A stretch of DNA of 32,000 nucleotides from Paracoccus suum (GTDB lineage: Bacteria > Pseudomonadota > Alphaproteobacteria > Rhodobacterales > Rhodobacteraceae): assembly GCF_003324675.1 (NCBI RefSeq), contig NZ_CP030918.1, positions 3,090,001 through 3,122,000 on the forward strand. The letters run 5' to 3'. This document shows, one piece after another, positions 947-19,383 of this stretch. The position numbers and the translations under genes were made by a program. The stretch's first letter is position 1. Each line of letters opens with the position of its first letter. The notes under the pieces are model-generated. The model had not been told where the DNA came from and did not search any database. It saw only the letters and a program-made list of their open reading frames with translations.

Positions 947-950
947 GCTC

Positions 951-2495: not shown

Positions 2496-2499
2496 GGAG

Positions 2500-2715
2500 T
2501 CAGAGCCCCTTCACCGTCGTCACGCGCACCTGCCGCACGATGCGGCGCCCCTCGGCCGCCGCGATCTCGCGGTCCAGCGCCTCGATGGCCCGGTCGATCT
2601 CGGCGACGCTGCGATAGTCCACCGTCTTGCCGTCGTAGCTGACCCGCGCCACGCCCGAGGCGCGCTGCACGGCCAGTGCCTCGCGGCGGGCACGGAGTTC
2701 TGCGGCCGTGGCCAT
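2500..2715 (-). CDS. Head-tail joining protein gpW family
   Basis: 71-aa ORF (MATAAELRARREALAVQRASG...VSYDGKTVDYRSVAEIDRAIEALDREI) located between TerL and portal, exactly as lambda W. Size and sequence pattern fit gpW. Confidence 0.8.
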   Translation of the reverse strand: MATAAELRARREALAVQRASGVARVSYDGKTVDYRSVAEIDRAIEALDREIAAAEGRRIVRQVRVTTVKGL

Positions 2716-2718
2716 GGA

Positions 2719-4722: not shown

Positions 4723-5266
4723 GTTTCTCCAGCACCTTCTGCATCGCGGCTGGCTCCACGGCGATCTGCTGGCCCGTCGCGTCGCTGCACGAGGCCGAAA
4801 GCTCGGCCGCCATCAGCGCCGCCGCGCGCGGGGGCCAGTTCACCCATGCGTCCCGTTCCTCCCGCGCCAGCCGGAACACCAGCGCCAGCGCGCGGGCCCG
4901 CTCGATCAACTCCCCCTTCAGCTTCTGGAGCCGGATGCGCCGCTCCTGCGCCTTCAGCACCTCGTTCGCGGTCTTGGCCTGCAGGAAGGTCGTCCCGCCA
5001 CCCACCGCAGGGACCGCCAGACCCTGTTCGCGGAGCGTGTCGCCGACGGCGGCGACCGCCGCCTCGGGGACAGGCTTCAGCTTCGGCGCGGGCGGCTTGC
5101 GGGTCTTGGACGGGTCGGTGGTGTCCGCCCGCCGCGCGTCGCTGGCGGCAGCGTTGATGCTGCCGTCGGGATAGAGGACCAGCCGCTCGGCCGTCTTCGC
5201 CTTCTGGATCGCGCCCCGCGACAGCCCGACATGGGCGGCGTACTGGCGCTCGCTCATGCCCCGCAT
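4670..5266 (-). CDS. Putative terminase small subunit (N-terminal HTH)
   Basis: 198-aa ORF directly upstream of TerL, overlapping it by 53 nt. N-terminal HTH-like MSERQYAAHVGLSRGAIQKAKTAERL, coiled central region. Assigned by position and architecture only. Confidence 0.6.
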   Translation of the reverse strand: MRGMSERQYAAHVGLSRGAIQKAKTAERLVLYPDGSINAAASDARRADTTDPSKTRKPPAPKLKPVPEAAVAAVGDTLREQGLAVPAVGGGTTFLQAKTANEVLKAQERRIRLQKLKGELIERARALALVFRLAREERDAWVNWPPRAAALMAAELSASCSDATGQQIAVEPAAMQKVLEKHVRAHLDELAEVRPDFR

Positions 5267-5297
5267 CGACGGCTCCGATTATCATTCAAGATCATGT

Positions 5298-5316
5298 GCT
5301 TATCGAGTTGATAAGC
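5298..5316. promoter_or_regulatory. Perfect inverted repeat GCTTATC-N5-GATAAGC in the AT-rich divergent intergenic region upstream of terS (operator or cos-related candidate)
   Basis: Read directly: gcttatc gagtt gataagc, embedded in the AT-rich tract gattatcattcaagatcatgtgcttatcgagttgataagc. Confidence 0.4.
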
Positions 5317-5379
5317 GCGGCGGACAGAGGGAACGTGCCTCCAGAAGGACGATGCAACTCGACCCAAGGAGCCAGCCCG

Positions 5380-5640
5380 ATGACCCGCCGCGCGACCGAC
5401 AGTGAGACCGCTCCCGCCACCGGTTCGAGGGAGCGGTCGAACAAAGCCCTCGACGCCTTCATCGCCGCGAAGACGGAGATCGACGCGATGCTGGAGCGGC
5501 TCGCCGCCCTCAGCGCCGACCACTTCGAGACCAGCCCCGACGAGATCAACTGGGGCCATGTCGGCACCCTGAACCACTACCGCGCCAAGCTGCGCGAGAT
5601 CACCGACATGGCCTTCAGCGAAGGCGAACACGCCGAGTGA
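5380..5640 (+). CDS. Hypothetical small protein (86 aa)
   Basis: The track ORF is 5296-5640. I place the start at ATG 5380 because AAGGAG (5366-5371) lies 8 nt upstream. Sequence MTRRATDSETAPATGSRERSNKALDAFIAAKTEIDAMLERLAALSADHFE...; no family recognised. Confidence 0.55.
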   Translation: MTRRATDSETAPATGSRERSNKALDAFIAAKTEIDAMLERLAALSADHFETSPDEINWGHVGTLNHYRAKLREITDMAFSEGEHAE

Positions 5641-5730
5641 GACGACCCGCTCCCGGTCCCGCCCGCCGACTGGCGGGCTCGACCTCGTAGAAGGGCCCGC
5701 ATTCCGCGCGCCCCGATACGGGAGACGACG

Positions 5731-6315
5731 ATGACCAAGCTTTCCGACACCCAAGCCCTGATCCTGAGCGCTGCCGCGCAGCGCGAGGACCGCAACGTCC
5801 TGCCGCTCCCCGGCTCGCTCCGCGGAGGCGCCGCCGCCAAGGTGGTCGGCGCGCTGCTCTCGCGCGGACTGATCGCCGAGACGACGATTGCCAGCGAGAC
5901 CAAGGCCGACGCCGCGCTCAACCGCATCTGGCGCAACGACGAGGACGGCCGTGCCATCCTCCTGCACATCACCGACGCAGGGCGCGCCGCCATCGGCGTC
6001 GAGCCGGAGGGCGGCGACAGCGCGCCCGCGGGCGCCGACGCGGCGCCGAGCGCCGTAGCCGCGCAGGACGCTCCCGGCGAGGCCGACGCCGCGCCCAAGG
6101 CGCGCACACCGCGCACGGGCACGAAGCAGGCCAAGCTGATCGAGATGCTCCGCGCCGAGGGCGGCGCCACCATCGACGAGATCGTCACCGCCTTGGACTG
6201 GCGGCCGCACACGGTGAGGGGCGCGCTTGCCGGCGCGCTCAAGCAAAAGCTCGGCCTGACCATCACCTCCGAGAAGGTCGACGGAAGGGGCCGCGTCTAC
6301 TCCATCCGCGACTGA
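5731..6315 (+). CDS. DUF3489-like winged-helix protein
   Basis: 194-aa ORF. The C-terminal TKQAKLIEMLRAEGGATIDEIVTALDWRPHTVRGALAGALKQKLGLTITSEKVDGRGRVYSI matches the DUF3489 pattern as I remember it. GGGAG lies 8 nt upstream of the ATG. Confidence 0.7.
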   Translation: MTKLSDTQALILSAAAQREDRNVLPLPGSLRGGAAAKVVGALLSRGLIAETTIASETKADAALNRIWRNDEDGRAILLHITDAGRAAIGVEPEGGDSAPAGADAAPSAVAAQDAPGEADAAPKARTPRTGTKQAKLIEMLRAEGGATIDEIVTALDWRPHTVRGALAGALKQKLGLTITSEKVDGRGRVYSIRD

Positions 6316-6341
6316 CGCTCCGCACCGAAACGGACTGAAGG

Positions 6342-6365
6342 CCGCCGTCCACCCTCGGGCGGCGG
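6342..6365. terminator. GC-rich hairpin between convergent genes (possible bidirectional terminator)
   Basis: ccgccg (6342-6347) pairs with cggcgg (6360-6365) and the loop also has internal pairing. There is no clean U-tract. Confidence 0.35.
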
Positions 6366-6369
6366 TGTC

Positions 6370-6594
6370 TCATTCTGCACTCCGGATCCGGATCGCCTCG
6401 AACAGTCGCCGCAGCAGGTAGCCGCGCGCCAGCGAGACACCGACGAAGGCGAGGCCGATGGTCAGATGCTCCGCGAGCCCGGTCTCGATGCCGAACCACG
6501 GGAACACGATGATCTGCGTGGCGATGGCCAGTACGTAGCCGACCACGACATTCGTCGCTGCCTCGACCATCGACATGGTCCGGGATTGTCTCAT
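6370..6594 (-). CDS. Small two-TM membrane protein (74 aa), last gene of the phage methylase operon
   Basis: MRQSRTMSMVEAATNVVVGYVLAIATQIIVFPWFGIETGLAEHLTIGLAFVGVSLARGYLLRRLFEAIRIRSAE has two hydrophobic helices and a basic tail. Its ATG overlaps the upstream stop (ATGA at 6591-6594). Confidence 0.65.
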   Translation of the reverse strand: MRQSRTMSMVEAATNVVVGYVLAIATQIIVFPWFGIETGLAEHLTIGLAFVGVSLARGYLLRRLFEAIRIRSAE

Positions 6595-7592
6595 CGCAGC
6601 CCCTCCGGCAGGGATCCCAGAAAGGCCGTCACGAACTCCGCCGCGAGCGGCGGCACGATCGCATTGCCGTAGCCCCGCAGCAGCCCCATGCGGCCGGATA
6701 TCCCATCAGCCAGCGGGAATGTTCCGGGCTCAACCGGTCGCCAGCGCCCATCCCGGCAGAAGAGCCAGTCAGGATTTCGCCAGACGCCGTCCGTCGCGCA
6801 GGTCCCGGCGGGGTCGGTGACTTCGACCAGACGACCAGCTTCAGCGTCCTGCGGCTCGCATCGGTGTTGCCGGCCGCGTTGTATCGCTTCGTGGCGGGCG
6901 AGCCCGCCATCGCCGTCGGCCAACCCGCCAGCCAGACCTGTCGGCCGAGCAGCGCATTGATCGGCACCGACCGGCATTCCGATCCGTCCTTGTGATCCCT
7001 CGCCGAGGCCGTCGCCCAACCCGCGAGTGACTGCGTCCAAGGCGACGGCGCCGAAGAACAGGCGTTGGCGGATGTGCGGCGCGCCGATGCCCGCAGCCGG
7101 CAGATCGGCCGCCGCGACGGCGTAAGATGCCGCTTCCAGGTCAGCCGCCAGAGCGTCGAACCACGCCCAGCCAGTCGGGCCCTCAACTGCCGCGCGAGAC
7201 TTTCTGCCAACCGGTCCGAGCACTGCCGCGCTCGCGACCTGCTCGCCGAAGACGAGCTCCGGGCGGCAGGCTGCGACGAGCCGCAGGAATGCCGGGGCGA
7301 GATGGCGGTCATCGTCCTGTCCCTTGCGCTGCCCGGCCTGACTGAAGGGCTGGCAGGGCGGCGAACCGGTCCAGACGGACAGATCGTCCGCTACGCCCGC
7401 GAGTCGCAGCGCATATGGCCAGCCGCCGATGCCGGCGAAGAAATGACATTGCGCGAAGCCGCGCAGCTCGGTGGGCTCCACCTCGAGGATGGACCTTTCG
7501 TCCACTTGGCCCGCGGGCAGAAGCCCGGCCGCGATCAGTTCCCGCAGCCAGGCGCAGATCGCGGGATCGGCATCGTTGTAGTAGACGGCCAT
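6591..7592 (-). CDS. DNA (cytosine-5) methyltransferase, 333 aa
   Basis: Motif I FFAGIGG, motif IV GSPPCQPFS, motif VI-like FGEQV, motif VIII-like HIRQRLFF, motif X GNAIVPP. The true start is MAVYYND at 7592, which overlaps the upstream stop as ATGA. The 591-aa track ORF is an artefactual 5' extension. Confidence 0.9.
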   Translation of the reverse strand: MAVYYNDADPAICAWLRELIAAGLLPAGQVDERSILEVEPTELRGFAQCHFFAGIGGWPYALRLAGVADDLSVWTGSPPCQPFSQAGQRKGQDDDRHLAPAFLRLVAACRPELVFGEQVASAAVLGPVGRKSRAAVEGPTGWAWFDALAADLEAASYAVAAADLPAAGIGAPHIRQRLFFGAVALDAVTRGLGDGLGEGSQGRIGMPVGADQCAARPTGLAGGLADGDGGLARHEAIQRGRQHRCEPQDAEAGRLVEVTDPAGTCATDGVWRNPDWLFCRDGRWRPVEPGTFPLADGISGRMGLLRGYGNAIVPPLAAEFVTAFLGSLPEGLR

Positions 7593-8914
7593 CAGGCGGC
7601 TGCATCGGCCTTGTCGCCCAGCCGCTCGGCCTTCACCTCGGCGAAAATCCGGCCGTCGCCGTCGAGGATCGCCTCGCGCCCGGTGTCGGCCTGCCAGCGT
7701 TCGACGGCGACATCGACGTAAGCCGGGCTGATCTCCATCGCGAAGACGCGTCGGCCGTTCGCCTCGCCCGCCATGATCTGCGAACCCGAACCCGAGAACG
7801 GCTCGTAGCAGAGCCCGCCCCGGGCCACATGCTGGCGCATCGGGATGCCGAACGCATCGAGCGGCTTCGGTGTCGGATGGTCGGGCCGGTCGTCCTTGGC
7901 GAAGCTGGGCAGCGCCCACGTCGATGCGAGGGTTTCCTCGGCCACCTTCGGCGGCCGGTTCGGGCGGCGCCAGCCCATGAAGCAGGGCTCGTGCTTCCAG
8001 AGGTAATGGGACCGGGTCAGGACACCGCGGTCCTTGACCCAGATGATCTGCTGGTGAACGAACGCGCCGGCCTTGTCCCAGCAGGCTTCCAGCATCGCCT
8101 GGCGGCGGGAGGCGTGCCAGCAATACCAGGCGGCATCTTCGGCGATGGCTTCCGCCACCGCGGCGGCAATGAAGCCGTCGTAGAGTTCCGCGCCTTGCGA
8201 GGAATCGTCCCAGGTCACGCCGTAGCTCTGACTCCAGTCCTTGTTCCGCGTCGGATGGTTCGAGCCATCGTAGTCGACGAGATACGGCGGGTCCGTTGCG
8301 AACAGGATCGCCCGCTCGCCATTCATCAGGCGGCGCACCTCGGCAGCGCTGGTGCTGTCGCCGCACAGCAGCCGGTGGTCGCCGAGGATCCAGAGATCAC
8401 CCGTCCGCGAAGCCGGGTTGCGCGGTGGCTCGGGGATGGTGACCGGCGGCACGGAGCCCCCGGCGCCACCCTCTTCCTCGCCGTCCCCCTCCGGCACGAA
8501 GGCCAGTAGCTTGTCGAGTTCGCCGTCCGAGAACCCGACCAGCGACAGGTCGAAGTCTTCGGCCAGCAACTCGTTCAACTCGGCCGAGAGCAGCGCCTCG
8601 TCCCATGTCCCGAGTTCGGTCAGCTTGTTGTCCGCGATCCGATAGGCCCGGCGCTGGGCCTCGGTCAGATGGCCGAGCACGATGACCGGTGCCTCGGTCA
8701 GCCCCAGTTGGGTCGCGGCCAGAACGCGCCCATGGCCTGCGATCAGCTCCCCGTCCTCGCCGACGAGGCAAGGCACGGTCCAGCCGAACTCGGCCATGCT
8801 GGCGGCGATCTTCACGACCTGGTCGGCCCCGTGCACCTTCGCGTTCTTCGCGTAGGGCTGCAGGCGCGACAGCGGCCAGGTCTCGATCCGATCCGGGGCA
8901 AAGCTCAGCGTCAT
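7592..8914 (-). CDS. ParB-like nuclease domain fused to a beta-class DPPY DNA methyltransferase (N6-A/N4-C family)
   Basis: 440 aa. The N-terminus LQPYAKNAKVHGADQVVKIAASMAEFGWTVPCLV...IAGHGRVLAA is ParB/Srx-like. DPPY motif in LFATDPPYLVDYDG, followed later by the AdoMet motif EPFSGSGS (order IV then I = beta class). GAAGGA RBS lies ~11 nt upstream. Confidence 0.9.
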   Translation of the reverse strand: MTLSFAPDRIETWPLSRLQPYAKNAKVHGADQVVKIAASMAEFGWTVPCLVGEDGELIAGHGRVLAATQLGLTEAPVIVLGHLTEAQRRAYRIADNKLTELGTWDEALLSAELNELLAEDFDLSLVGFSDGELDKLLAFVPEGDGEEEGGAGGSVPPVTIPEPPRNPASRTGDLWILGDHRLLCGDSTSAAEVRRLMNGERAILFATDPPYLVDYDGSNHPTRNKDWSQSYGVTWDDSSQGAELYDGFIAAAVAEAIAEDAAWYCWHASRRQAMLEACWDKAGAFVHQQIIWVKDRGVLTRSHYLWKHEPCFMGWRRPNRPPKVAEETLASTWALPSFAKDDRPDHPTPKPLDAFGIPMRQHVARGGLCYEPFSGSGSQIMAGEANGRRVFAMEISPAYVDVAVERWQADTGREAILDGDGRIFAEVKAERLGDKADAAA

Positions 8915-9033
8915 CTGCGGGCCGGTCCTTCAGGATCAGGGTGGATACCCTCGGCTCCGGACTCCGGGGGCCAGGCTAGACTCCACGCGGGGTCCAGCGG
9001 CCACCAGGGGTGTCCAGCTTCAAGGGTTTGATT

Positions 9034-9049
9034 TTTCGATGTTTCGATG
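9034..9049. repeat. Perfect tandem octamer TTTCGATG x2; a third copy lies at 9357-9364
   Basis: Read directly in the lower-GC intergenic region upstream of the methylase operon. Confidence 0.5.
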
Positions 9050-9164
9050 GGGTTCAGGCGGCGCTGGCTTCTGGGTGGCTTCCCAAAAAATCGGCCCTGT
9101 CGCTGGCGATGCGTCGCGCTTCGCCCGCCAGCATACGAATATCGTCAGGAAGGAACCAAGAACT

Positions 9165-9210
9165 CAATGGGTTAGCCCATTGGACCCCCACTGGACCCTT
9201 CGCTGGACCC
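9165..9210. promoter_or_regulatory. Palindrome CAATGGG-TTAG-CCCATTG followed by three direct TGGACCC repeats at 11-12 bp spacing (operator/iteron-like)
   Basis: Palindrome at 9165-9182. TGGACCC at 9181-9187, 9192-9198 and 9204-9210. An inverted copy GGGTCCA lies at 8990-8996. Confidence 0.45.
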
Positions 9211-9321
9211 CGGAAGCCAGCGGCGCGGCCTCTGCCTGCGCGCTCCTCTCCCGAGCATATTCGTTTTCTAACGGCCTCGTCGAAATGTGTAAGGGCCTGC
9301 GATGTACACCCGAAAATTTCC

Positions 9322-9768
9322 TCAGAGGACGATTTTTCTTGACAGCCGATTGGCGTTTTCGATGACGAACTGCTGTGACCGCCGGGGCGACGGCACGCGA
9401 CCGTTCAGCCGCCAAGTGATCACCGCCAGACCGTATTGCCAGCGCTTGGTCGCGGCCGTGCGCGACAGGCCGAACTGCCAGCAGATCGGCTTCCACGCCA
9501 TGCCGTCGGCGCGGGCCCAGACGAGGCGCCCATCCTCGGGCTCGAGCCAGCGCAGCCAGAGCATCGCCTCCTCGGCCTCCGTGATCTGTCGCGGGCTGGG
9601 CCTCGGGCGACGCATCTGCGGCTCCTGACCGACCTTGTCGGCGAAGCTGTGGAAATACTCGGGCCATGCGTTGAAGAAGCCCTGCGGCATCACGCCCGGC
9701 ATCTGCCGCATCACGCCCGCCGCAAGTTCAAGCCGATCCTGCACCTGCGCTGTGGTCCACTCACCCAT
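9322..9768 (-). CDS. Phage-associated hypothetical protein with C-terminal HTH-like segment (DUF6362-like, from memory)
   Basis: 148-aa ORF that overlaps the upstream gene by 8 nt. Contains ...WPEYFHSF...EAMLWLRWLEPEDGRLVWARADGMAWKPICWQFGLSRTAATKRWQYGLAVITWRLNG. Confidence 0.6.
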   Translation of the reverse strand: MGEWTTAQVQDRLELAAGVMRQMPGVMPQGFFNAWPEYFHSFADKVGQEPQMRRPRPSPRQITEAEEAMLWLRWLEPEDGRLVWARADGMAWKPICWQFGLSRTAATKRWQYGLAVITWRLNGRVPSPRRSQQFVIENANRLSRKIVL

Positions 9769-9964
9769 GACGCGCCTCCCGTTCCCGCTTGCCGTAGAGC
9801 CGCTCGCCGAGCTGGCGCACCAGCTCGCGCTCCGGCCAGGTCAGGCGGTCGTCGTCTATGGCGACGGCCAGCAACCCCTGTTCCTTCCAGCCGTCGCGCT
9901 TGACCTCGTCGGGGTTGCGGCGGTGACCGCCATAACCCTTGGGCGTGAACCGCATGCCGCTCAT
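9761..9964 (-). CDS. Hypothetical phage protein (67 aa)
   Basis: ATGA overlap with the RuvC-like gene stop (9961-9964). Charged, non-GC-artefact composition (MSGMRFTPKGYGGHRRNPDEVKRDGWKEQGLLAVAIDDDRLTWPERELV...). Confidence 0.5.
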   Translation of the reverse strand: MSGMRFTPKGYGGHRRNPDEVKRDGWKEQGLLAVAIDDDRLTWPERELVRQLGERLYGKREREARHG

Positions 9965-10497
9965 TGCACACCTCCCCGGGTCTCCAGCGCCCAGAGCAGG
10001 ATCGCGATGGCGTCGGCCTCATTGTCGTCGGCGGGGCTGAAGCCGCGCGCCCGGGCGGCCGCCATCACGGCGTCCTTGTTCGCGTTGCCCTTGCCGGTGG
10101 CGTGGCGCTTGATGGTGCCGACGGGAACGCCCTCGTAGGGAATGCCGCGCAATTCGGCCCATGCCGTCAGCGTGGCCATCAGCCCGCCATAGACATGGGC
10201 GGCATCGGTCGCGGCATGGCGGCGGACCTCTTCGAACCAGATGGCGGCGACGGGCCCGGACAGCCGGTCGATCTCGGTGAGCCAGTTCGTGAACCGCAGA
10301 TACCGCATGCCGCCACCGTCGAAGCGGCCGGGGCGGAAGGACGCCGTGCCGGAGGTGATCAGCCCGTCGATGCCGTGCAGCGCCCAGCCCGTCATGGTGC
10401 CGAGGTCGAGCGCCAGCGTCACCCGGTTGGCGCGGACGACGGGTCGCAGATCGGGGATTGCCTCACGGGCGGAGGTGGCGAGAGTCAGGTCAGCCAT
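9961..10497 (-). CDS. RuvC-fold Holliday-junction resolvase (phage type), 178 aa
   Basis: The true start MADLTLATS is at 10497. Catalytic-acid pattern LALDLGTMTGWAL ... IWFEEV ... DDNEADAIAILLWAL, as in RuvC-like nucleases. The 507-aa track ORF is a 5' extension. Confidence 0.8.
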   Translation of the reverse strand: MADLTLATSAREAIPDLRPVVRANRVTLALDLGTMTGWALHGIDGLITSGTASFRPGRFDGGGMRYLRFTNWLTEIDRLSGPVAAIWFEEVRRHAATDAAHVYGGLMATLTAWAELRGIPYEGVPVGTIKRHATGKGNANKDAVMAAARARGFSPADDNEADAIAILLWALETRGGVQ

Positions 10498-10617
10498 GGG
10501 TGGTCTCCTCTTCTGGTTGGCTGCTCGGGTGGAAGACGACGGTGGCCTGGTGCTTGGCGGTACGGGGCCGCCGTCGTCGGATCGGAATGTGCAGGGTGCG
10601 TCGGAGCCCGCGCGCGG

Positions 10618-11826
10618 ATGCCCTCGACGTATGGAAGGCGAGCCAGCCAGCGGTCTGAGGGCTGGGTACTCGTCCGCGATCAGTATGACGACGGCGGCAT
10701 CTCCGGCGGCACGCTGGATCGCCCCGGCCTGCAGCGGCTGCTGGAGGACATCGAGGACGGGCTGGTCGAAGTGGTGGTGGTCTACAAGATCGACCGCCTC
10801 AGCCGCTCCCTGGCCGACTTCGCCAAGTTGGTCGAGGTGTTCGACCGCAATGGCGTGACGTTCGTCTCGGTCACGCAGTCCTTCAACACGACCACGTCGA
10901 TGGGGCGGTTGACCCTGAACATCCTGCTCAGCTTCGCCCAGTTCGAGCGGGAGGTCACGGCCGAGCGGATCCGCGACAAGGTCGCCGCCAGCCGGAAGAA
11001 GGGCATATGGATGGGCGGGGTGCCGCCTTTCGGCTACCGTGTCGAGAACCGGAAGCTGGTGGTCGACGAAGAGCACGCTGCGCATGTGCGCTGGATCTTC
11101 GCCCGCTTCCTCGAGATCGGGTCCTGCACGGAACTGGCGCGGGAGGTCGGCACGCGGGGACTTCGGACGCCCCGCGGCAACCGGATCGACAAGAAATACA
11201 TCTATCGGATGCTCAGCAACCGCGCCTACATCGGCGAGGCGGTCCACAAGGGCGACAGCTATCCCGGCGAGCACCACGCCATCATCGACCGCGAGCTGTG
11301 GGACAAGGTTCACGCCATCCTGCAGGAGAGCCCCCGGAAGCGCGCCGCGCGCACGCGCGCCGACACGCCCGCGCTGCTGAAGGGGTTGCTCTACGGCCCC
11401 GACGGCGCGGCCTTCTCGCCGACCCACACGCGCAAGGCCGGGCGGCTCTACCGCTACTACGTCAGCCAGACGGTGCTGAAGCATGGCGCGGCGTCGTGTC
11501 CCATCGGCCGCGTGCCCGCCGGCGAGATCGAAGCGGCCGTCATCGAGCAGTTGCGCGCCGTGTTCCGCCAGCCTGAGATTGTCGCGGGCACATGGAAGGC
11601 GGCGCGGGTGCAGTACGGTGAGATCACCGAGGCCGACGCGCGCGCGGCGCTGATTCGGCTCGACCCGCTGTGGGACGATCTGTTCCCGGCCGAGCAGGCG
11701 CGCATCGTGGCGCTGCTGGTCGAGCGGGTCGAGATCGTCACGGAAGGCCTGAACGTCCGGCTGCGTATGGACGGACTGGCCGGGCTGGCGCGCGAAATCA
11801 CCGCCGACATAGGAGCAGCCGCATGA
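10618..11826 (+). CDS. Large serine recombinase, N-terminally truncated (catalytic Ser region missing); likely inactive remnant
   Basis: Strong resolvase/recombinase-domain blocks: EGWVLVRDQYDDGGISGGTLDRPGLQRLLEDIEDGLVEVVVVYKIDRLSRSLADFAKLVEVFDRNGVTFVSVTQSFNTTTSMGRLTLNILLSFAQFEREVTAERIRDKVAASRKKGIWMGG. The first in-frame ATG (10618) lies only 13 codons before the EGW block. No Y-x-R-x-S-S/T segment is present in frame. Confidence 0.75.
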   Translation: MPSTYGRRASQRSEGWVLVRDQYDDGGISGGTLDRPGLQRLLEDIEDGLVEVVVVYKIDRLSRSLADFAKLVEVFDRNGVTFVSVTQSFNTTTSMGRLTLNILLSFAQFEREVTAERIRDKVAASRKKGIWMGGVPPFGYRVENRKLVVDEEHAAHVRWIFARFLEIGSCTELAREVGTRGLRTPRGNRIDKKYIYRMLSNRAYIGEAVHKGDSYPGEHHAIIDRELWDKVHAILQESPRKRAARTRADTPALLKGLLYGPDGAAFSPTHTRKAGRLYRYYVSQTVLKHGAASCPIGRVPAGEIEAAVIEQLRAVFRQPEIVAGTWKAARVQYGEITEADARAALIRLDPLWDDLFPAEQARIVALLVERVEIVTEGLNVRLRMDGLAGLAREITADIGAAA

Positions 11827-12221
11827 CCCGCGCCACCCCGGTCCCCGATACTGTCACCATCCATGTCCCGTTCCGCCTCGTGAAGCGTGGGGGGCGGAAG
11901 GAGATGCAGTTGCCCGAAGGCGCGTCCACCCCGCGCCGCCCCGATGACGCACTCGTCAAGGCACTGGCCCGCGCGTTTCGCTGGAAGCGGATGCTGGAGT
12001 CTAGCGAGTACGCAACGGTCGCCGAATTGGCCGAGCGCGAGGGGATTGCGCCCTCTTACATGACCCGCGTCCTGCGTCTGACACTGCTCGCGCCCGACAT
12101 CGTCGAGGCGATCCTGGACGGGAAGCAGGGGCCATTGGTGACGCTGGTGCGGGTGATGGAGCCGTTCCCGGTGGAGTGGAACGACCAGTTGCCTTCCCTT
12201 CGCAATAGCCGCATGACGTAA
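11823..12221 (+). CDS. Recombinase-associated HTH protein (132 aa)
   Basis: ATGA overlap with the recombinase stop. Contains PFRLVKRGGRKEMQLPEG...LARAFRWKRMLESSEYATVAELAEREGIAPSYMTRVLRLTLLAPDIVEAILDGKQ, a block I recognise as a frequent companion or C-terminal extension of such recombinases. Confidence 0.65.
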   Translation: MTRATPVPDTVTIHVPFRLVKRGGRKEMQLPEGASTPRRPDDALVKALARAFRWKRMLESSEYATVAELAEREGIAPSYMTRVLRLTLLAPDIVEAILDGKQGPLVTLVRVMEPFPVEWNDQLPSLRNSRMT

Positions 12222-12230
12222 GAATACGAC

Positions 12231-12262
12231 TTGCTGACCGTTTTTTGCTGCACTAAACACAC
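12231..12262 (+). promoter_or_regulatory. Candidate promoter/operator of the RHH-MTase operon: TTGCTG direct repeat (12231-12236, 12245-12250) and a TAAACA -10-like element
   Basis: TTGCTG, then a 17-nt spacer, then TAAACA, ending ~7 nt before ATG 12266. No SD is visible, so the mRNA may be leaderless or nearly so. Confidence 0.3.
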
Positions 12263-12265
12263 ATC

Positions 12266-12478
12266 ATGGCGCGACCGAAGGGACGAACGAAGACAGCCAG
12301 GGTCACGATTAACCTGGACGAACGAGCGTACGCCCTGTTGCTCGCCTTCGCGGAGCGTGACGACGCCCCGGTGGCGCAGGTTGCTCGAAAGGCGGTCGTG
12401 GACTTCCTCAATCGCGTCGAACCAACAATAGATCAAGGCTCGCTCCCGTTCGTGCGCCCGCAAAGAGAAGACCACTAA
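12266..12478 (+). CDS. Ribbon-helix-helix (CopG/Arc/MetJ-type) DNA-binding protein, 70 aa; putative controller of the cassette
   Basis: MARPKGRTKTARVTINLDERAYALLLAFAERDDAPVAQVARKAVVDFLNRV shows basic N-terminal beta-strand (VTINLDE), helix, helix. Its stop overlaps the M1 start (TAATG). Confidence 0.75.
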   Translation: MARPKGRTKTARVTINLDERAYALLLAFAERDDAPVAQVARKAVVDFLNRVEPTIDQGSLPFVRPQREDH

Positions 12479-13662
12479 TGGCGCACGGAACACACGAACC
12501 CACCCCCCAAAAGACGGATAGCTGGTCAGCTTCGCTAGATCCGGAAACAGCAGCAAGGTCGTCTTTGTCAGAGGTTGATTGGGGCTTCCCCGATCGGCGC
12601 AGCCATAGCGAGATCGAAGGCGTCCACCCTTATCCTGCCAAATTCATTGCGGAAATCCCGCGAGCACTCATCAACTGCTTGCCACTGCCTCCCCACAGCG
12701 GTGTGCTGGACCCGTTCTGCGGGAGCGGTAGCAGTTTAGTTGAAAGCCAGCGACTAGGCATTCCCGCTGTCGGAGTCGACCTGAACCCAATCGCTTGCCT
12801 AATGTCTCGCGTTAAGACCTCGGCCTGCCCGACCGATATCGAGCAGCTTGCTGCTCGGATTGTAGCGAGCTCAGAGACAGCTTCTGATGGCGAGATTCCT
12901 GAAATTCCTAATCTTGATCACTGGTTCCAGCCAAATGTCCAGGTGGAGATCAATAAGATTGCTCGTTCTATCGCGACTTCCCCAAGTGAGGCTCGCGATG
13001 CGCTGAAGCTAGCACTTTCGAGTATTATTGTCAGAGTCTCTAATCAGGAAAGCGATACCCGATATGCGGCGGTACAGAAGGATATCGATCCTTCCGCCGT
13101 CCCCACGCTTTTTTTGCGCGCGGTCAACCGCATCAACGCCGCTCTCCAAAATAGACCATATCCCTTGACCTCCGTGGATGTAATTGAGAACGACATCCTG
13201 AAGGTAGAGCCGAGCATGATTGGGCGACCGATTGGATTGGTCGTAACATCTCCTCCATACCCGAACGCATATGAGTATTGGCTTTATCACAAATACCGGA
13301 TGTGGTGGTTGGGGTATGACCCATTGAAGGTGAAAGCTGACGAGATTGGTGCGCGGGCTCACTTCTTCAAGAAGAACCACCACACGGCCGAAGATTTTGC
13401 ACGGCAAATGAGACAGACGCTAAAGCTTCTGGGAAACGTGTTGGTGAAGGGGGGCTTTGCAAGTTTCGTGGTTGGCCGCTCGAAGATCCATGGGAAGATT
13501 TACGACAACTCGGAAATCATCACAGATGAAGCTGCACCGCTTGGCTTCACTCCGTTCTTCGTAACAGAGCGGGAACTGTCAGCGAACCGAAAATCATTCA
13601 ACCTTTCTCATGCAAACATTAAGACAGAAACCGTCTTGGTGCTGCGGAAGGAGGTCGAGTGA
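12478..13662 (+). CDS. DNA methyltransferase M1, N4/N6 family, SPPY motif (predicted N4-cytosine), motif I before motif IV
   Basis: 394 aa. HPYPAKF...VLDPFCGSGSSLVESQRLG (FCGSG at 12715-12729), DLNP, and VVTSPPYPNAYEY (SPPY at 13249-13260). Lies in the low-GC region. Confidence 0.85.
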   Translation: MAHGTHEPTPQKTDSWSASLDPETAARSSLSEVDWGFPDRRSHSEIEGVHPYPAKFIAEIPRALINCLPLPPHSGVLDPFCGSGSSLVESQRLGIPAVGVDLNPIACLMSRVKTSACPTDIEQLAARIVASSETASDGEIPEIPNLDHWFQPNVQVEINKIARSIATSPSEARDALKLALSSIIVRVSNQESDTRYAAVQKDIDPSAVPTLFLRAVNRINAALQNRPYPLTSVDVIENDILKVEPSMIGRPIGLVVTSPPYPNAYEYWLYHKYRMWWLGYDPLKVKADEIGARAHFFKKNHHTAEDFARQMRQTLKLLGNVLVKGGFASFVVGRSKIHGKIYDNSEIITDEAAPLGFTPFFVTERELSANRKSFNLSHANIKTETVLVLRKEVE

Positions 13663-15146
13663 TGCGGCTCCGTTGGCATAACTACAAGTACTACCCCTAC
13701 GAGAAAGAGCTCGCTTCTCGGGAGGTGACTTCACTGATCTGCCCGTCAGGAGCCAATGAAGTACAAGATGGCCTGGATTTGCGCGAAGCAAGGCCCGGTT
13801 CCGGAGCGGAACGCCTGACCTATTTCAAGGGCTACGAGAATGGCTCTGGGTTTACTTCAACGGTGCAAGCTGAGCTGGAGGAAACGGCACGAAACGGAAA
13901 AAACCGCCAGGCGACACGTTATTCAGTTCATGGCCTGCATGAATACAAAGGGAAATTTAATCCGCAAGTCGCCAAGGCGCTTCTTAATATTTTCAAGGTT
14001 GAGCCTGGGCAGACTGTCCTTGATCCGTTCTGTGGTAGCGGCACGACTCTCGTTGAGTGTTGCCATTTGGGTGTCGACGCGGTCGGCACTGACATAAATC
14101 CACTCGCAGTCTTCTTGTCGAACGCAAAGCTACTTGGCTTGTCGGTCCCGCCCTGTGAACTCCGAAAAGCGCACAAGAACATTTCGGCCCAGCTTCGATC
14201 TTTTGATGGAAGGAAAGCCCCTCAGTCTTCTGCTGCGCGTCGCGAATACCTACTGAAATGGTTTGATCCTGAAATCTACGACGAAATCGAAGGCGTTCGG
14301 GCCATCATCCTCGACATTGCCGGCGAGATGTCGCCAATTTTTCTATCTGTAGCTAGCAACCTTCTTCGTGAGTATTCCCAGCAGGACCCACGAGACTTGC
14401 GGATCAGGAGGAGGACCTCGCCACTTCCGTCGAATTCGTTCACATCTGCGCTCTTGGATGCGCTTCCACAAATTATTGATCGGATACTTTCCGCGCGAGA
14501 ACTCATTGGTTCACGGGCACCTCTCGGTCGAGCGGTACTCTGTGACGTATCCGAGTTGACGGCAGATAGCGCAATGCGGAAGTTCGATGCCGCCATTACC
14601 AGCCCGCCATATGCCATGGCACTCCCGTATATTGACACGCAACGCCTTTCGTTGGTTTGGCTTGATCTCCTGGCGCCCAATCAAATTCTCGAACTCGAGG
14701 CATCACTGATCGGAAGTAGAGAGCTTCGTGGAAACTCAAAGCGGGAACTGCCTCAATTGCTCGCATCAAACGAGGCAGAATTGCCGGATCAAGAGTACGA
14801 ACTTTGCATCAAGCTCGAGGATTTGCTCGGTGAAGAAGACGGGTTTCGCAGGCGTGCCGTTCCGTCGCTTCTGTATCGATACTTCGCGTCGATGAAAGCA
14901 AACTTCAGCTCAGTGAACAGGCTGATGAGAGAGGGAGCTCCCTACGCTTTGATTGTTGGCCACAACCACACTACAATCGGGGGCGTTCGTCATGACATCG
15001 ATACCCCCGAACACTTGTCGCGACTGGCTACTGCGGTCGGCTGGAAAGTAGAAGAACTCATTCCGCTGCAAACCTACCGGCGCTACGGATATCATGTGAG
15101 TAATGCGGTTGCAGCAGAAACGCTGATCATACTTCGGAAAGAATAG
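13662..15146 (+). CDS. DNA methyltransferase M2, paralogous to M1, SPPY motif (predicted N4-cytosine), with an extra ~45-aa N-terminal segment
   Basis: 494 aa from ATG 13662 (the track starts at GTG 13659). The start overlaps the M1 stop (TGATG). LHEYKGKFNPQ...VLDPFCGSGTTLVECCHLG (14028-14042), DINP, AITSPPYAMALPY (14601-14612). Confidence 0.85.
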   Translation: MRLRWHNYKYYPYEKELASREVTSLICPSGANEVQDGLDLREARPGSGAERLTYFKGYENGSGFTSTVQAELEETARNGKNRQATRYSVHGLHEYKGKFNPQVAKALLNIFKVEPGQTVLDPFCGSGTTLVECCHLGVDAVGTDINPLAVFLSNAKLLGLSVPPCELRKAHKNISAQLRSFDGRKAPQSSAARREYLLKWFDPEIYDEIEGVRAIILDIAGEMSPIFLSVASNLLREYSQQDPRDLRIRRRTSPLPSNSFTSALLDALPQIIDRILSARELIGSRAPLGRAVLCDVSELTADSAMRKFDAAITSPPYAMALPYIDTQRLSLVWLDLLAPNQILELEASLIGSRELRGNSKRELPQLLASNEAELPDQEYELCIKLEDLLGEEDGFRRRAVPSLLYRYFASMKANFSSVNRLMREGAPYALIVGHNHTTIGGVRHDIDTPEHLSRLATAVGWKVEELIPLQTYRRYGYHVSNAVAAETLIILRKE

Positions 15147-15170
15147 CACGCCGATCTTCAATCGTTGTTT

Positions 15171-16565
15171 TTACCAGTTCGGCGAAATACCTGCGGGTAA
15201 CCAGCACGCACCTTGACCCACGAGCGCACCACCGGCTGAAGCAGTGGCGAGCATCCCGTCTACCGTGGCGAAGAGTGGGTCAGCTGGATCGATGAATGTT
15301 GCCTTGAAAGTTGGATCGGCTGGCGTCGGCCACTCTAAGATCATTGGGTCGTTTGCTGTCGGGACATGGAATCCGTGTGCTGCGGCATGATCGCGAATGG
15401 CACGAGCAGGCGCGGCCGGCACGACCATCCTCACGTCACCATGGCCAGATTCACCAGGAGCGTATCCGTAGACCATTACATTGGTGCTAGAGGATGCTAC
15501 TTCGTAGGCTCCCAAGTTTGAGACATAACGCATGCGAAGGTCGAACTCGGCGCGAGGCCTCTGATACTTTCCTTGAAATACGCCGAACCTCATCGTGCCG
15601 ATGGTCGCAACTGGTACGCTTACGTTTGCTGTGCCACTGCCTCCGGAGAAGTGCCTTGCACTGTCTCGGTTGAGGCGAATGACCAATCCAGCAGCGCCGC
15701 CCGCTAGCGTGGATCCGGTCAAGGCTGCTGCCCCGAGTGTCGGTGTCGCGATGCCTGGTGCGAAGAGTACATATGGGGGGAAGGGCGGGCGCGGGCTTGA
15801 GGTAAGCGGTCCGGCAGATGGAGCAACCGTCGCTGTGCTGGGCGGGGCGGAAGGCGCTGCTGCCGCTGAACCCAAAGCTGCTACAGTGCCGCTCTTAACC
15901 GAGACAGGGGGGAACTTGATTAGCGGCTTGAGTCCGATTTTGCTTGATGCCGCCCCGCTGCTTCCAGAAATGGATTGCGTTGTACGTGGCGTAGGGGCCA
16001 CGCCAAGCACTCCGGCGGCGACTAGAGGTGCGAGGTCGGCAAGTGCCGTCACAGTTGAGAGCCCGGGCCGAGGTCCATTGAACCAAGCGTCAATTGCTGC
16101 CGCGACGTCTGAAAGGACGTGATCGGGATCGCCGGTCGATGAATCCAAGAGCAAACCTGCCTCGATGTTCATCCCAGAAATGCCCGGCGTAGTCAGATTT
16201 GCCGATCCAACATAGGCGGCCTGAGTGCCGTCCTGCCTTGTGAAGTGATATACCTTTGGGTGAAATAGCCCCGCAGAGAAGCTAACAACCCCGATCCTTG
16301 CGTTTGCTCTTGGGGTTCCAACGAGATTAACCAGCGTTTCGATATCTGGCTCTCCGGTTTCTCCGCCGTTTGACCCAATTACACAATTCGTCAATCTATC
16401 TTGCGACTTCAGCTCATTTATTACTGGCGCCAAAGGAGCCAGTCCGTCTGCACTAAAGTATCCCGTTTGCCAACGTAGGGCGTCGACAGCCAGGGGACTG
16501 AAGCTGGCGAGCCATTCTCCAAGAACGTCAGACGTGTTTCGAGATGCTGAGTCGATGTATCTCAA
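15171..16565 (-). CDS. Single-HKD phospholipase-D-superfamily nuclease (putative restriction endonuclease/effector), 464 aa, TTG start
   Basis: HKD motif LFHPKVYHFTRQDGTQAAYVGSANLT (aa 100-125, nt 16197-16262). A/S/P/G-rich linker spans aa ~185-295. C-terminal ~170 aa have no family I recognise. The start is TTG at 16565, with an in-frame TGA 2 codons upstream and GGAG 9 nt upstream. Convergent with M2, 24-nt gap. Confidence 0.8.
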   Translation of the reverse strand: MRYIDSASRNTSDVLGEWLASFSPLAVDALRWQTGYFSADGLAPLAPVINELKSQDRLTNCVIGSNGGETGEPDIETLVNLVGTPRANARIGVVSFSAGLFHPKVYHFTRQDGTQAAYVGSANLTTPGISGMNIEAGLLLDSSTGDPDHVLSDVAAAIDAWFNGPRPGLSTVTALADLAPLVAAGVLGVAPTPRTTQSISGSSGAASSKIGLKPLIKFPPVSVKSGTVAALGSAAAAPSAPPSTATVAPSAGPLTSSPRPPFPPYVLFAPGIATPTLGAAALTGSTLAGGAAGLVIRLNRDSARHFSGGSGTANVSVPVATIGTMRFGVFQGKYQRPRAEFDLRMRYVSNLGAYEVASSSTNVMVYGYAPGESGHGDVRMVVPAAPARAIRDHAAAHGFHVPTANDPMILEWPTPADPTFKATFIDPADPLFATVDGMLATASAGGALVGQGACWLPAGISPNW

Positions 16566-16955
16566 GGGTACTCACTCCGGTCGGGGGATGTGGTACGAAT
16601 AACAGCCGCTTATGTTAAAGCACAAGCAGCAAGAGATAGTGTGGGGGCTGCCTCAACCGGGAAGTGGGCCTCGCGGGCGGGCCGCTATAAGAAAACCTTC
16701 TCCGCGCGCTTGGTATCATGCGTTTGCATCGCGCTGCGAAGGGTTTGATTTCAGTTCCATCTAACGAACACCCCTGTCGTCGAAGTGTTCGGAACTTGGT
16801 CGAAAACTAACAAGTAATTTCAATCTGTTGCAAGCTATTCACCAAATTCGCGCAGTCATGAGGTCCGGAGAATATCGGCCCTGAGAGACCGCTTCCGGCC
16901 CGCCCGGTGCCAGGGCCAGTGCTCAGCCCCTCCCGCATAACCCTCGAATACAACG

Positions 16956-16978
16956 GAAAAATCCGGCCGCAGCCGGAT
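16956..16978 (-). terminator. Rho-independent terminator of tRNA-Ser
   Basis: On the minus strand: ATCCGGC-TGCG-GCCGGAT followed by TTTTT, 27 nt downstream of the tRNA 3' end. Confidence 0.75.
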
Positions 16979-17004
16979 CAAGAGAACGCTTTCGCGAGGG
17001 CAAA

Positions 17005-17094
17005 TGGCGGAGTGGAAGGGATTCGAACCCTCGAGACGGTTTCCCGCCTGCACCCTTAGCAGGGGTGTGCCTTCGACCACTCGGCCACCACTCC
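17005..17094 (-). tRNA. tRNA-Ser (anticodon GCU), CCA encoded
   Basis: Minus strand: GGAGTGGTGGCCGAGTGGTCGAAGGCACACCCCTGCTAAGGGTGCAGGCGGGAAACCGTCTCGAGGGTTCGAATCCCTTCCACTCCGCCA. The 7-bp acceptor GGAGTGG pairs with CCACTCC. Anticodon stem CACCC/GGGTG carries loop CT-GCT-AA. Long variable arm and GGTTCGAATCC T-loop are present. Confidence 0.95.
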
Positions 17095-18285: not shown

Positions 18286-19383
18286 TCAGCCGTTGAAGAG
18301 GAAGTGCAGGACGTCCCCGTCCTTGACCTCGTAGCCTTTGCCTTCGACCCGGAACCGACCCGCCTCGCGCGCGCCCGCCTCGCCATTGCCTGCAATGTAA
18401 TCGTCATAGGCGATGGTCTCGGCCCGGATGAAGCCACGCTCGAAATCACCATGGATGACGCCCGCCGCCTGCGGGGCCATGGTGCCGCGCGTGATGGTCC
18501 AGGCGCGCGCCTCCTTGGGGCCGACGGTAAAATAGGTCTGCAGACCCAGCAATTCGTAGCCGGCGCGGATCAGCCGGTCGAGGCCGGCCTCCGTCAGCCC
18601 CATCTCGCCCAGGAACTCGGCGGCCTCGTCGGCCGGCAGTTGCGACAGCTCTTCCTCGATCCGGGCCGAGATGACCACATGGCCCGCGCCCTCTGCCTCA
18701 GCCCGTTCGGCGACCGCGGCTGTCAGGGCGTTACCCTCGGCCGCCTCGGCCTCGGCGACGTTGCAAACGTAAAGCACCGGCTTGGCGCTCAGCAACTGCA
18801 GCATGTCCCAGGCGCGACGATCATCCTCGGCAATGGTAAGGCTGCGGGCGGGACGCCCGGCCTCAAGCGCCACCAGTGCCGCCTTCAGCAGCCGCTCTTG
18901 CGCGACGGCATCCTTGTCGCCGCCCTTCACCTTGCGAGACAGGTTCGCCAGTCGCCGCTCGATCGATTCCATGTCGGCGATCATCAGCTCGGTCTCGATG
19001 GTCTCGGCATCAGCCAGCGGGTCGATCCGGCCCTCGACATGGGTGATGTCGCCGTCCTCGAAGCAGCGCAGCACATGGGCGATGGCATCGACCTCGCGGA
19101 TGTTGGCGAGGAACTGGTTGCCGAGCCCCTCGCCCTTGCTGGCGCCCTTCACGAGGCCGGCGATGTCGACAAAGGTGATGCGCGTCGGGATGATCTGCTT
19201 GCTGCCGGCGATAGCCGCCAGCTTGTCGAGGCGCGCATCCGGAACGGCCACGTCGCCGACGTTCGGCTCGATGGTGCAGAACGGAAAGTTGGCCGCCTGG
19301 GCGGCCGCGGTGCGGGTCAGGGCGTTGAACAGGGTGGACTTGCCGACATTCGGCAGCCCGACGATTCCCATGCGAAAGCCCAT
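18286..19383 (-). CDS. ychF: Redox-regulated ribosome-binding ATPase YchF
   Basis: 365 aa. [20 protein letters not shown]-loop, [21 protein letters not shown], and the C-terminal TGS-like [13 protein letters not shown]. Confidence 0.95.

Follow-up and report, generated by a model that had tools for sequence, protein, structure and literature searches.

A probable BfiI-like restriction-modification cassette at the integrase end of a prophage in Paracoccus suum

RESULTS

An intact restriction-modification cassette in a low-GC segment

A 32,000-nucleotide (nt) stretch of Paracoccus suum DNA (contig NZ_CP030918.1, positions 3,090,001 to 3,122,000; the whole stretch is called the window, and positions are counted from its first letter) contains a cassette of four genes that encode a small putative regulator, two DNA methyltransferases (M1 and M2), and a nuclease. 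The cassette is an intact restriction-modification system and belongs to a known kind of bacterial defense. We propose, with a probability of about 0.8, that it is a BfiI-like, stand-alone, metal-independent system similar to those of Type IIS.

The cassette differs in composition from its surroundings. The GC content of positions 12001-17000 is 0.51 to 0.61, versus 0.64 to 0.74 across most of the remaining window (500-nt windows), and in 100-nt steps the drop sets in at position 12200 and closes at about 16900. GC contents at third codon positions (GC3) are 0.58 for M1 and 0.55 for both M2 and the nuclease gene; among the neighbors, GC3 is 0.90 in the recombinase gene just upstream, 0.86 in ychF, and 0.79 in a downstream gene for a Dyp-type peroxidase.

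Three open reading frames (ORFs) lie on the forward strand: the regulator (12266-12478; 70 amino acids [aa], with a pattern resembling the ribbon-helix-helix [RHH] fold), M1 (12478-13662; 394 aa), and M2 (13662-15146; 494 aa, the length that gene callers also give its homologs; a GTG at 13659 is also open and would yield 495 aa). The stop codon of the regulator overlaps the start codon of M1 (TAATG, 12476-12480), and that of M1 overlaps the start codon of M2 (TGATG, 13660-13664). The nuclease ORF (15171-16565; 464 aa, TTG start) lies on the reverse strand and converges with M2. The 24-nt gap between the two stop codons (15147-15170) holds a weak 9-nt imperfect inverted repeat and nothing else. 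A terminator scan found no terminator-like site in this gap, and scans for inverted repeats and for consensus promoters and terminators around the cassette returned nothing over background. All four ORFs are full length, and their catalytic and motif residues are all intact. An initial annotation of the window, made from its letters, had described an abrupt low-GC stretch from 12222 to about 16850, which agrees with the windowed GC and GC3 values. Its gene coordinates, overlaps, motif positions, and 24-nt gap match the ORF list and our direct reading, and the scan gave no reason to revise its statement that the gap lacks an obvious terminator.

The nuclease matches BfiI in catalytic residues and predicted fold

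Residues 1-185 of the nuclease (16011-16565, reverse strand) form a phospholipase D (PLD) domain with a single HKD motif, as supported by Pfam family PF09565, Foldseek, and an alignment to BfiI. The protein passes PF09565 (RE_NgoFVII, the N-terminal PLD domain of restriction endonucleases) with 36.7 bits against a gathering cutoff of 23.8 bits (residues 30-142). Its single HxK lies at H102-P-K104 and is followed by GSAN at residues 120-123 and by E135, in keeping with the HxK(x)4D(x)6GSxN-type motif of PLD-superfamily nucleases. Residues H102, K104, N123, and E135, whose codons fall in 16161-16262, align to H105, K107, N125, and E136, the catalytic residues of BfiI (PMC4267654; BfiI residues and mechanism, PMC4081073). 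All four are invariant across 32 homologs that are 42 to 88% identical to the window nuclease. In total, 323 homologs were detected, the top one being a 464-aa Paracoccus suum protein (100% identity, 100% query coverage) that NCBI names "NgoFVII family restriction endonuclease." PADLOC REase profiles match the nuclease only at E ≥ 1e−3.

BfiI is the sole PDB match of the nuclease at the sequence level (phmmer E = 0.16, 47 residues, HKD motif only). In an AlphaFold2 model of the full-length protein, built from the 32-sequence alignment (mean predicted local distance difference test [pLDDT] score, 86), the PLD domain has pLDDT values of 87 to 98. When this model was searched with Foldseek, BfiI (2c1l) was the best PDB match, with both domains aligned (E = 1e−11, 446 columns). 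SauUSI ranked second, through the PLD domain only, and the NgoAVII R-protein ranked fourth (E = 3.8e−7); further fold matches include NucT and Zucchini. Structural alignments of the nuclease with BfiI have 13 to 14% identity.

The PLD domain is followed by a disordered linker rich in Ser, Ala, and Pro (residues 186-258; 15792-16010, reverse strand), as delimited by pLDDT and composition. Its pLDDT is below 50 at residues 191-209 and 224-250 and about 81 at residues 211-220. Among homologs, the linker varies in length and sequence except for the nearly invariant L212 and L215. These two residues belong to a short conserved motif, L212-K-P-L215-I-K-F-P (about 15906-15929; residues 213-220), which, by analogy with a proposal made for the BfiI linker, could dock on the PLD cleft.

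The C-terminal domain (residues 259-464; 15174-15791, reverse strand) is predicted by the model and Foldseek to be a B3-like pseudobarrel. Modeled alone, it reaches a mean pLDDT of 95.2 and a predicted template modeling score of 0.91. Its best PDB match is again BfiI 2c1l (E = 1.4e−3, probability 1.00), followed by the N-terminal domain of LlaJI.R1 (6c5d, probability 0.96), which we take to contain a B3-type DNA-binding pseudobarrel, and then by the DNA-binding domain of ARF2. Because the three best PDB matches are all B3-type, we consider it most likely that this domain serves in recognition and has a B3-like fold, enlarged and diverged beyond the reach of sequence methods. The B3-like DNA-binding fold is common to BfiI and plant B3 factors (PMC4267654, PMC3973309). 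The domain has no Pfam family at E ≤ 0.1. A search of 1.84 billion representative proteins with a profile of the domain returned just 119 clusters, almost all of which are PLD fusions of 440 to 500 aa or fragments of such fusions.

These results support the initial annotation in taking the protein for a PLD enzyme of the restriction type, given that it passes PF09565 and that BfiI leads its PDB matches in both sequence and fold. They shorten the low-complexity linker from the approximately 110 aa given there to about 73 aa. The C-terminal domain, which had been called unplaceable, indeed has no family at the sequence level, but it can be placed as B3-like and of the BfiI type in the predicted structure. 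The description of the cassette as uncharacterized also stands, although it is less nameless than had been claimed, as the NCBI name of the nuclease already includes the term restriction endonuclease.

Two paralogous methyltransferases with an SPPY motif

Both M1 and M2 carry FCGSG as motif I and SPPY as motif IV (M1, 12715-12729 and 13249-13260; M2, 14028-14042 and 14601-14612; forward strand), separated by 178 residues in M1 and 191 in M2. The two motifs and the spacing between them are unchanged among related loci (18 loci for M1). Both proteins pass the Pfam family N6_N4_Mtase (PF01555; 47.3 bits for M1 and 42.1 bits for M2; gathering cutoff, 26.7 bits). Each also matches a REBASE-derived PADLOC "MTase_II" profile from end to end (M1, PDLC03364, E = 1e−127; M2, PDLC03377, E = 5e−146). 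With 29% identity across 269 aa, M1 and M2 are paralogs, and the earlier description of two same-family SPPY methyltransferases is thereby upheld. The order of motifs, I and then IV, is the opposite of that in the PF01555 profile, which is why the profile aligns well to M1 and M2 over its motif-I half alone.

The motif SPPY/F is the usual mark of enzymes that make N4-methylcytosine (m4C), while those that make N6-methyladenine (m6A) usually have D/NPPY/F/W. On this ground we favor m4C as the product of M1 and M2. Several observations would fit a different chemistry: PF01555 spans both reactions, the weak similarity of the two proteins reaches the adenine methylases HmaB, MAD2, DpnA, MboIIA, and CcrM, and with motif I ahead of motif IV they are not textbook beta-class m4C enzymes. 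They might then make m6A, or both might act on the same strand or on different sites. Such an alternative concerns this one step and leaves the restriction-modification architecture standing. We consider it unlikely, because neither enzyme departs from SPPY in any locus, the PDB matches include m4C enzymes (PvuII 1boo, 8s9m, and 8s9n), and M2 homologs carry the Joint Genome Institute (JGI) name "site-specific DNA-methyltransferase (cytosine-N4-specific)." Public annotation of M2 homologs disagrees between NCBI and JGI.

The nuclease and methyltransferase genes stay together across Proteobacteria

Loci were gathered by an exact look-up of homologs and by a scan of one genome per species, and their six-frame ORFs were searched with the four window proteins. 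Seventeen loci, including the window, were informative in having a full-length nuclease homolog and enough flank. In 17 of 17, the M2 ortholog converges on the nuclease gene and the M1 ortholog lies next to M2. The linkage of nuclease homologs to two methyltransferases, which the initial annotation had suggested surveying, thus holds in every informative locus. These loci span Alpha-, Beta-, and Gammaproteobacteria (Paracoccus, Tropicibacter, Mesorhizobium, Erythrobacter, Zavarzinia, Nitrosovibrio, Pseudomonas, and several metagenome-assembled genomes). All-against-all clustering of the flank ORFs revealed no further gene family common to the 17 loci and no helicase or ATPase.

In another set of loci (L022 to L039), which we call sister loci, the match is limited to nuclease residues 1 to about 220 (40 to 46% identity), and the encoded proteins have other C-terminal regions and adjoin other methyltransferases. 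In L024, L025, L026, and L033, the sister PLD gene lies beside an M.Eco57I-like gamma-class methyltransferase; in L027, it lies beside a single PF01555 (beta-class) methyltransferase; and in L023, a diverged C-terminal domain is accompanied by strongly diverged M1- and M2-like genes. Examples of sister-locus coordinates are 8001-10901 in L025 and 7956-10662 in L027. Judged from these sequences, a single PLD cleavage domain occurs with several different recognition domains, and the modification genes match each of them. Because the C-terminal domain and the methyltransferases vary together in the sister loci, we suggest that they share specificity. Modularity of this kind would be expected of Type IIS enzymes.

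Decaying copies of the cassette were also observed. In L015 (9435-11055), M2 is split into two ORFs. L021 (7968-8891) has a truncated nuclease and no methyltransferase matches despite ample flank. In L009 (7983-9191), the nuclease is truncated and the locus ends just beyond it, so that methyltransferase loss cannot be judged there. Both L021 and L009 keep tRNA-Ser-proximal sequence in common with the window.

A putative regulator, a promoter-like element, and a candidate operator

The 70-aa regulator has a strand-helix-helix pattern (RVTINLD / ERAYALLLAFAER / VAQVARKAVVDFL), and its orthologs precede M1 in nine other loci. Matches to Pfam RHH_9 are all sub-threshold (E = 0.11 for the window regulator and 0.0063 for the best of 7 orthologs), as is a profile match to the RHH region of ParG (PDB 1p94; E = 0.059). 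The regulator matches no helix-turn-helix (HTH) family except HTH_IclR (E = 0.14 over 24 residues). The earlier assignment as an RHH regulator is therefore retained in part: the pattern and the leanings toward RHH_9 and ParG speak for it, but no family passes its threshold.

A promoter-like element precedes the gene on the forward strand (12231-12259), consisting of TTGCTG (12231-12236), a 17-nt spacer, and TAAACA (12254-12259). The ATG of the regulator begins 7 nt past TAAAC, and no Shine-Dalgarno sequence precedes it. The arrangement TTGnnn-N17-TAAAC, together with the fixed 7 nt to the ATG, is kept in L001, L002, L004, L006 to L008, L010, and L013, where the flanks cannot be aligned. Because no Shine-Dalgarno sequence is present and the distance from TAAAC to the ATG is fixed, the regulator-M1-M2 transcript is probably leaderless.

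A comparison of loci, rather than scans of single sequences, also revealed a 19-bp near-palindrome, GTTTTTTGCTGCACTAAAC (12240-12258; GTTT-N3-GCWGC-N3-AAAC), that overlaps the spacer and the −10 element. It has one match in the window, and none is expected (100 shuffles). The exact pattern is present in nine loci, always at the equivalent site 5′ of an orthologous regulator gene, and was not found 5′ of M1 in loci without such an ortholog. From this distribution we infer a candidate operator through which the RHH-like regulator would control its own expression. Because the pattern has no match upstream of the nuclease gene (16566-16900), the regulator probably controls its own operon only.

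Three further loci (L011, L015, and L016) carry non-orthologous small ORFs with an RHH-like pattern in the regulator slot (≤450 nt upstream of M1), such as "RIVIEVEPETKRELYAALARDGLTLKDWFL" in L015 and "ISVLLTDAEEERFDAYCREKGFKKSTLAARLIREHL" in L011, where the 19-bp palindrome is missing. Their occurrence in this slot suggests that an RHH-first arrangement may be recurrent.

The cassette is cargo of a prophage

A prophage carries the cassette as cargo at its integrase end, where a serine-integrase module lies on one side and a tRNA-Ser gene on the other. A block of 6.3 to 6.5 kb, from position 10642 to about 17000, has 74 to 83% nucleotide identity with four Rhodobacterales genomes (L001 and L006 to L008). 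It comprises the recombinase, an accessory gene, the regulator, M1, M2, and the nuclease. Related recombinases lie beside the cassette in 8 of the 17 loci. The GC content of the cassette is far lower than that of the prophage itself, and both this composition and the block common to four other genomes agree with the horizontal acquisition originally proposed.

An IMG/VR viral contig encodes a nuclease that is 80% identical to that of the window. No nuclease relatives were found in sequenced phage genomes, and a search of a plasmid collection returned one weak PLD match only; the family is not plasmid-borne in the collections searched. A comparison of the tRNA-Ser end with the left part of the element for att-type direct repeats gave short repeats at chance level only. 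The lack of a long direct repeat fits a serine recombinase, because such an enzyme leaves no long duplication.

The prophage region occupies positions 1-12221, and its left end lies outside the window. On the reverse strand, it encodes a portal protein (951-2495), a large terminase (2719-4722), a small terminase (4670-5266), a ParB-domain DNA methyltransferase (7592-8914), and a RuvC-like resolvase (9961-10500). The forward strand encodes a large serine recombinase (about 10642-11826; Pfam Resolvase, Recombinase, and Zn_ribbon_recom) and a small accessory protein (11670-12221; phrog_14161 "recombinase," E = 6e−38). The right end of the element is flanked by tRNA-Ser(GCU) on the reverse strand (17005-17094; ARAGORN). 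The left region has nucleotide similarity to Acidithiobacillus and Rhodobacter phages. Within it, 149 nt (6657-6805) match, at 85% identity, a gene annotated "DNA methylase" in Rhodobacter capsulatus phages, RcPescado and RcPutin among them, and a 227-aa ORF (6629-7312, reverse strand) has no Pfam match.

Two further observations concern the surroundings of the cassette. The gene ychF, encoding a ribosome-binding GTPase (18286-19383), lies 1.7 kb to the right of the cassette and is also directly upstream of sister PLD nuclease genes in two actinobacterial genomes (L025, 6835-7992; L026, 6762-7964). This proximity could be due to chance or to a common integration hot spot. In Rhodobacteraceae bacterium PD-2 (L001, 5160-7619), an extra insert of about 2.2 kb, encoding a DUF5131 protein and a 382-aa protein, lies between the nuclease end of the shared block and the sequence next to the tRNA; the two are contiguous in the window.

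DISCUSSION

Weighing the evidence

Several points count against our interpretation of the cassette. The B3-like assignment of the nuclease C-terminal domain is well supported but not proven by a predicted structure: besides the Foldseek E value of 1.4e−3, the match to BfiI has a query-normalized template modeling score of 0.42, and known B3-like domains are smaller by about 50 residues. The SPPY motif is typical of m4C enzymes, yet it is no proof of m4C chemistry, and NCBI names M2 homologs (P0122, P0128, and P0189) "TRM11 family SAM-dependent methyltransferase" or "RNA methylase." The RHH fold of the regulator has weak but consistent support, all of it sub-threshold. We infer a promoter at 12231-12259 from conservation alone, and the consensus promoter scan missed this element. 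The proposed stand-alone activity is argued solely from the lack of a neighboring ATPase gene, and structures fail to explain why BfiI acts alone and R.NgoAVII depends on a helicase (PMC4267654).

This last point bears on the possibility that the nuclease is inactive alone and, in the manner of NgoAVII and CglI, is ATP dependent, relying on a DEAD-helicase-like N/H subunit whose gene lies elsewhere in the genome. In favor of it, R.NgoAVII shares the PLD-linker-B3 build and ranks fourth among the fold matches of the nuclease, and PF09565, the Pfam family whose cutoff the nuclease exceeds, takes its name from NgoFVII. We nevertheless regard such dependence as very unlikely. NgoAVII and CglI are three-gene systems that include an ATPase gene (PMC4267653), whereas neither a helicase or ATPase nor any other extra family is conserved in the 17 loci. 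Moreover, the cassette has two N6_N4-type methyltransferases rather than one, and the third catalytic residue of the nuclease is Asn, as in BfiI (N125), and not Asp, as in R.NgoAVII (D124).

All nuclease homologs begin with M/V-R/Q-Y-I/V-D at the alignment column of the TTG. Because of this agreement, and because the identical NCBI protein has 464 aa, we consider the TTG start real, as the initial annotation had it. An SD-like sequence, GGAGTGAG (SD, Shine-Dalgarno), lies 7 nt 5′ of the TTG, and the low-GC stretch upstream of the gene (16566-16900, reverse strand; GC 0.48 to 0.56) presumably holds the nuclease's own promoter. The consensus scan recognized no sigma-70 promoter 5′ of the nuclease. 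This result, the TTG start itself, and the decaying copies in L015, L021, and L009 would fit a decaying or silent remnant, in which the nuclease is unexpressed and only the methyltransferases are active. We find that very improbable for the window: its four ORFs are undamaged down to their catalytic and motif residues, and the position of the TTG or GTG start is conserved and has the SD-like sequence before it. In addition, nuclease homologs in other genomes keep their full length at 79 to 94% identity, which argues for purifying selection on the nuclease.

Two other readings of the PLD domain were rejected. Lipid metabolism is dismissed because phosphatidylserine synthases and phospholipases are far down the fold list (E of about 1e−3 to 1e−4) and the linkage to two DNA methyltransferases is constant. 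A SauUSI-like Type IV (methylation-dependent) enzyme is dismissed because SauUSI matches the PLD domain alone and the nuclease gene is strictly methyltransferase-linked.

Proposed mechanism

As a stand-alone BfiI-like system, the cassette would work as follows. By analogy with BfiI, two single-HKD PLD domains would dimerize to form one metal-independent active site that acts through a covalent phospho-histidine intermediate. The predicted B3-like C-terminal domain, which the flexible 73-aa linker joins to the PLD domain, would read an asymmetric DNA site, and cleavage would therefore be expected at a distance from that site. M1 and M2, whose overlapping codons suggest translational coupling, would each protect one strand of the asymmetric site, probably as m4C. 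The RHH-like protein would bind the 19-bp palindrome over its own promoter and thereby autoregulate the regulator-M1-M2 transcript. The nuclease would be expressed separately and from a weak TTG start, so that methylation may precede restriction when the element enters a new cell. In a lysogen, the system could protect against other phages and stabilize the prophage.

A more tentative proposal, to which we give somewhat less than even odds, is made jointly of three parts. The nuclease would be a metal-independent Type IIS enzyme with an uncatalogued recognition sequence, its long linker may lengthen or vary the reach of cleavage compared with BfiI, and an RHH autorepressor that controls a leaderless methyltransferase operon would represent a controller class distinct from the HTH C proteins.

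Significance

Systems of this nuclease family are likely scored as orphan methyltransferases, because PADLOC barely sees the nuclease and NCBI names the M2 homologs RNA (TRM11) methylases. The general picture of bacterial defense is unchanged by the cassette, and its distinctive features, namely a long disordered linker with one conserved motif, an RHH-like controller with a candidate operator, and carriage by a prophage, are of modest note. The gain would be more specific. PLD-type restriction enzymes work metal-free, and a second widespread family with PLD and B3-like domains would add a specificity for catalogs and for engineering; the cleavage domain of BmrI has served as a building block of engineered nucleases (PMC2094064). 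Such a family with a different recognition domain would also offer one more case from which to learn how the B3-like fold recognizes DNA. In the sister families, nature provides a clear instance of restriction systems that evolve by modules.

Comparison with known systems

PLD-type restriction enzymes were described as "far from rare" in a 2014 review, with more than 40 putative ones of other organization and specificity in REBASE (PMC4081073). Among known enzymes, the window nuclease resembles most closely BfiI and BmrI (Type IIS, ACTGGG 5/4; PDB 2c1l), with which it shares an N-terminal single-HKD PLD domain, the H/K/N/E set of residues, a linker, and a C-terminal domain that is predicted to be B3-like. 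Like BfiI, the cassette includes no ATPase partner gene, and because no helicase is conserved in the 17 loci, the resemblance is to the stand-alone BfiI rather than to NgoAVII and CglI. The BfiI system itself, reportedly described by Sapranauskas and colleagues in 2000, is said to have two m4C methyltransferases, one per strand. The cassette differs from BfiI in having an RHH-like regulator gene before the methyltransferases. With 13 to 14% identity in structural alignments and a phmmer E value of 0.16, the window nuclease represents a separate family and not an isoschizomer of BfiI.

The nuclease also resembles the R-protein of NgoAVII (NgoFVII) and CglI (PDB 4rct) in its PLD and B3-like domains, its membership in PF09565, and its NCBI family name. 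In contrast to NgoAVII and CglI, the window and related loci have two N6_N4-type methyltransferases and no helicase gene (17 loci), and the third catalytic residue is Asn. NgoAVII and CglI have a gene for a DEAD-family helicase-like subunit and require ATP (PMC4267653, PMC4267654). The linker of the window nuclease has about 73 aa and is rich in Ser, Ala, and Pro, whereas that of R.NgoAVII spans 165-187 and contains acidic Glu residues; the BfiI linker has been called similar to the latter (PMC4267654). The C-terminal domain has about 206 aa, compared with 158 aa in the B3-like domain of R.NgoAVII (residues 188-345) (PMC4267654).

In its control, the cassette resembles systems with C proteins, at least as far as the sequence suggests: a small protein of the DNA-binding type heads the operon, a palindrome lies over its own promoter, and the leader would be short or absent. 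Several C-gene transcripts are leaderless. A precedent for a controller that represses methyltransferase genes is C.BclI (PMC2094064). Known C proteins bind DNA via an HTH (PMC3874152), and where the same source brings up the RHH fold, it is for toxin-antitoxin regulators alone, with Omega and PaaR as examples. Unlike C proteins, the window regulator is RHH-like, and the operon that it heads carries the methyltransferase genes rather than the nuclease gene.

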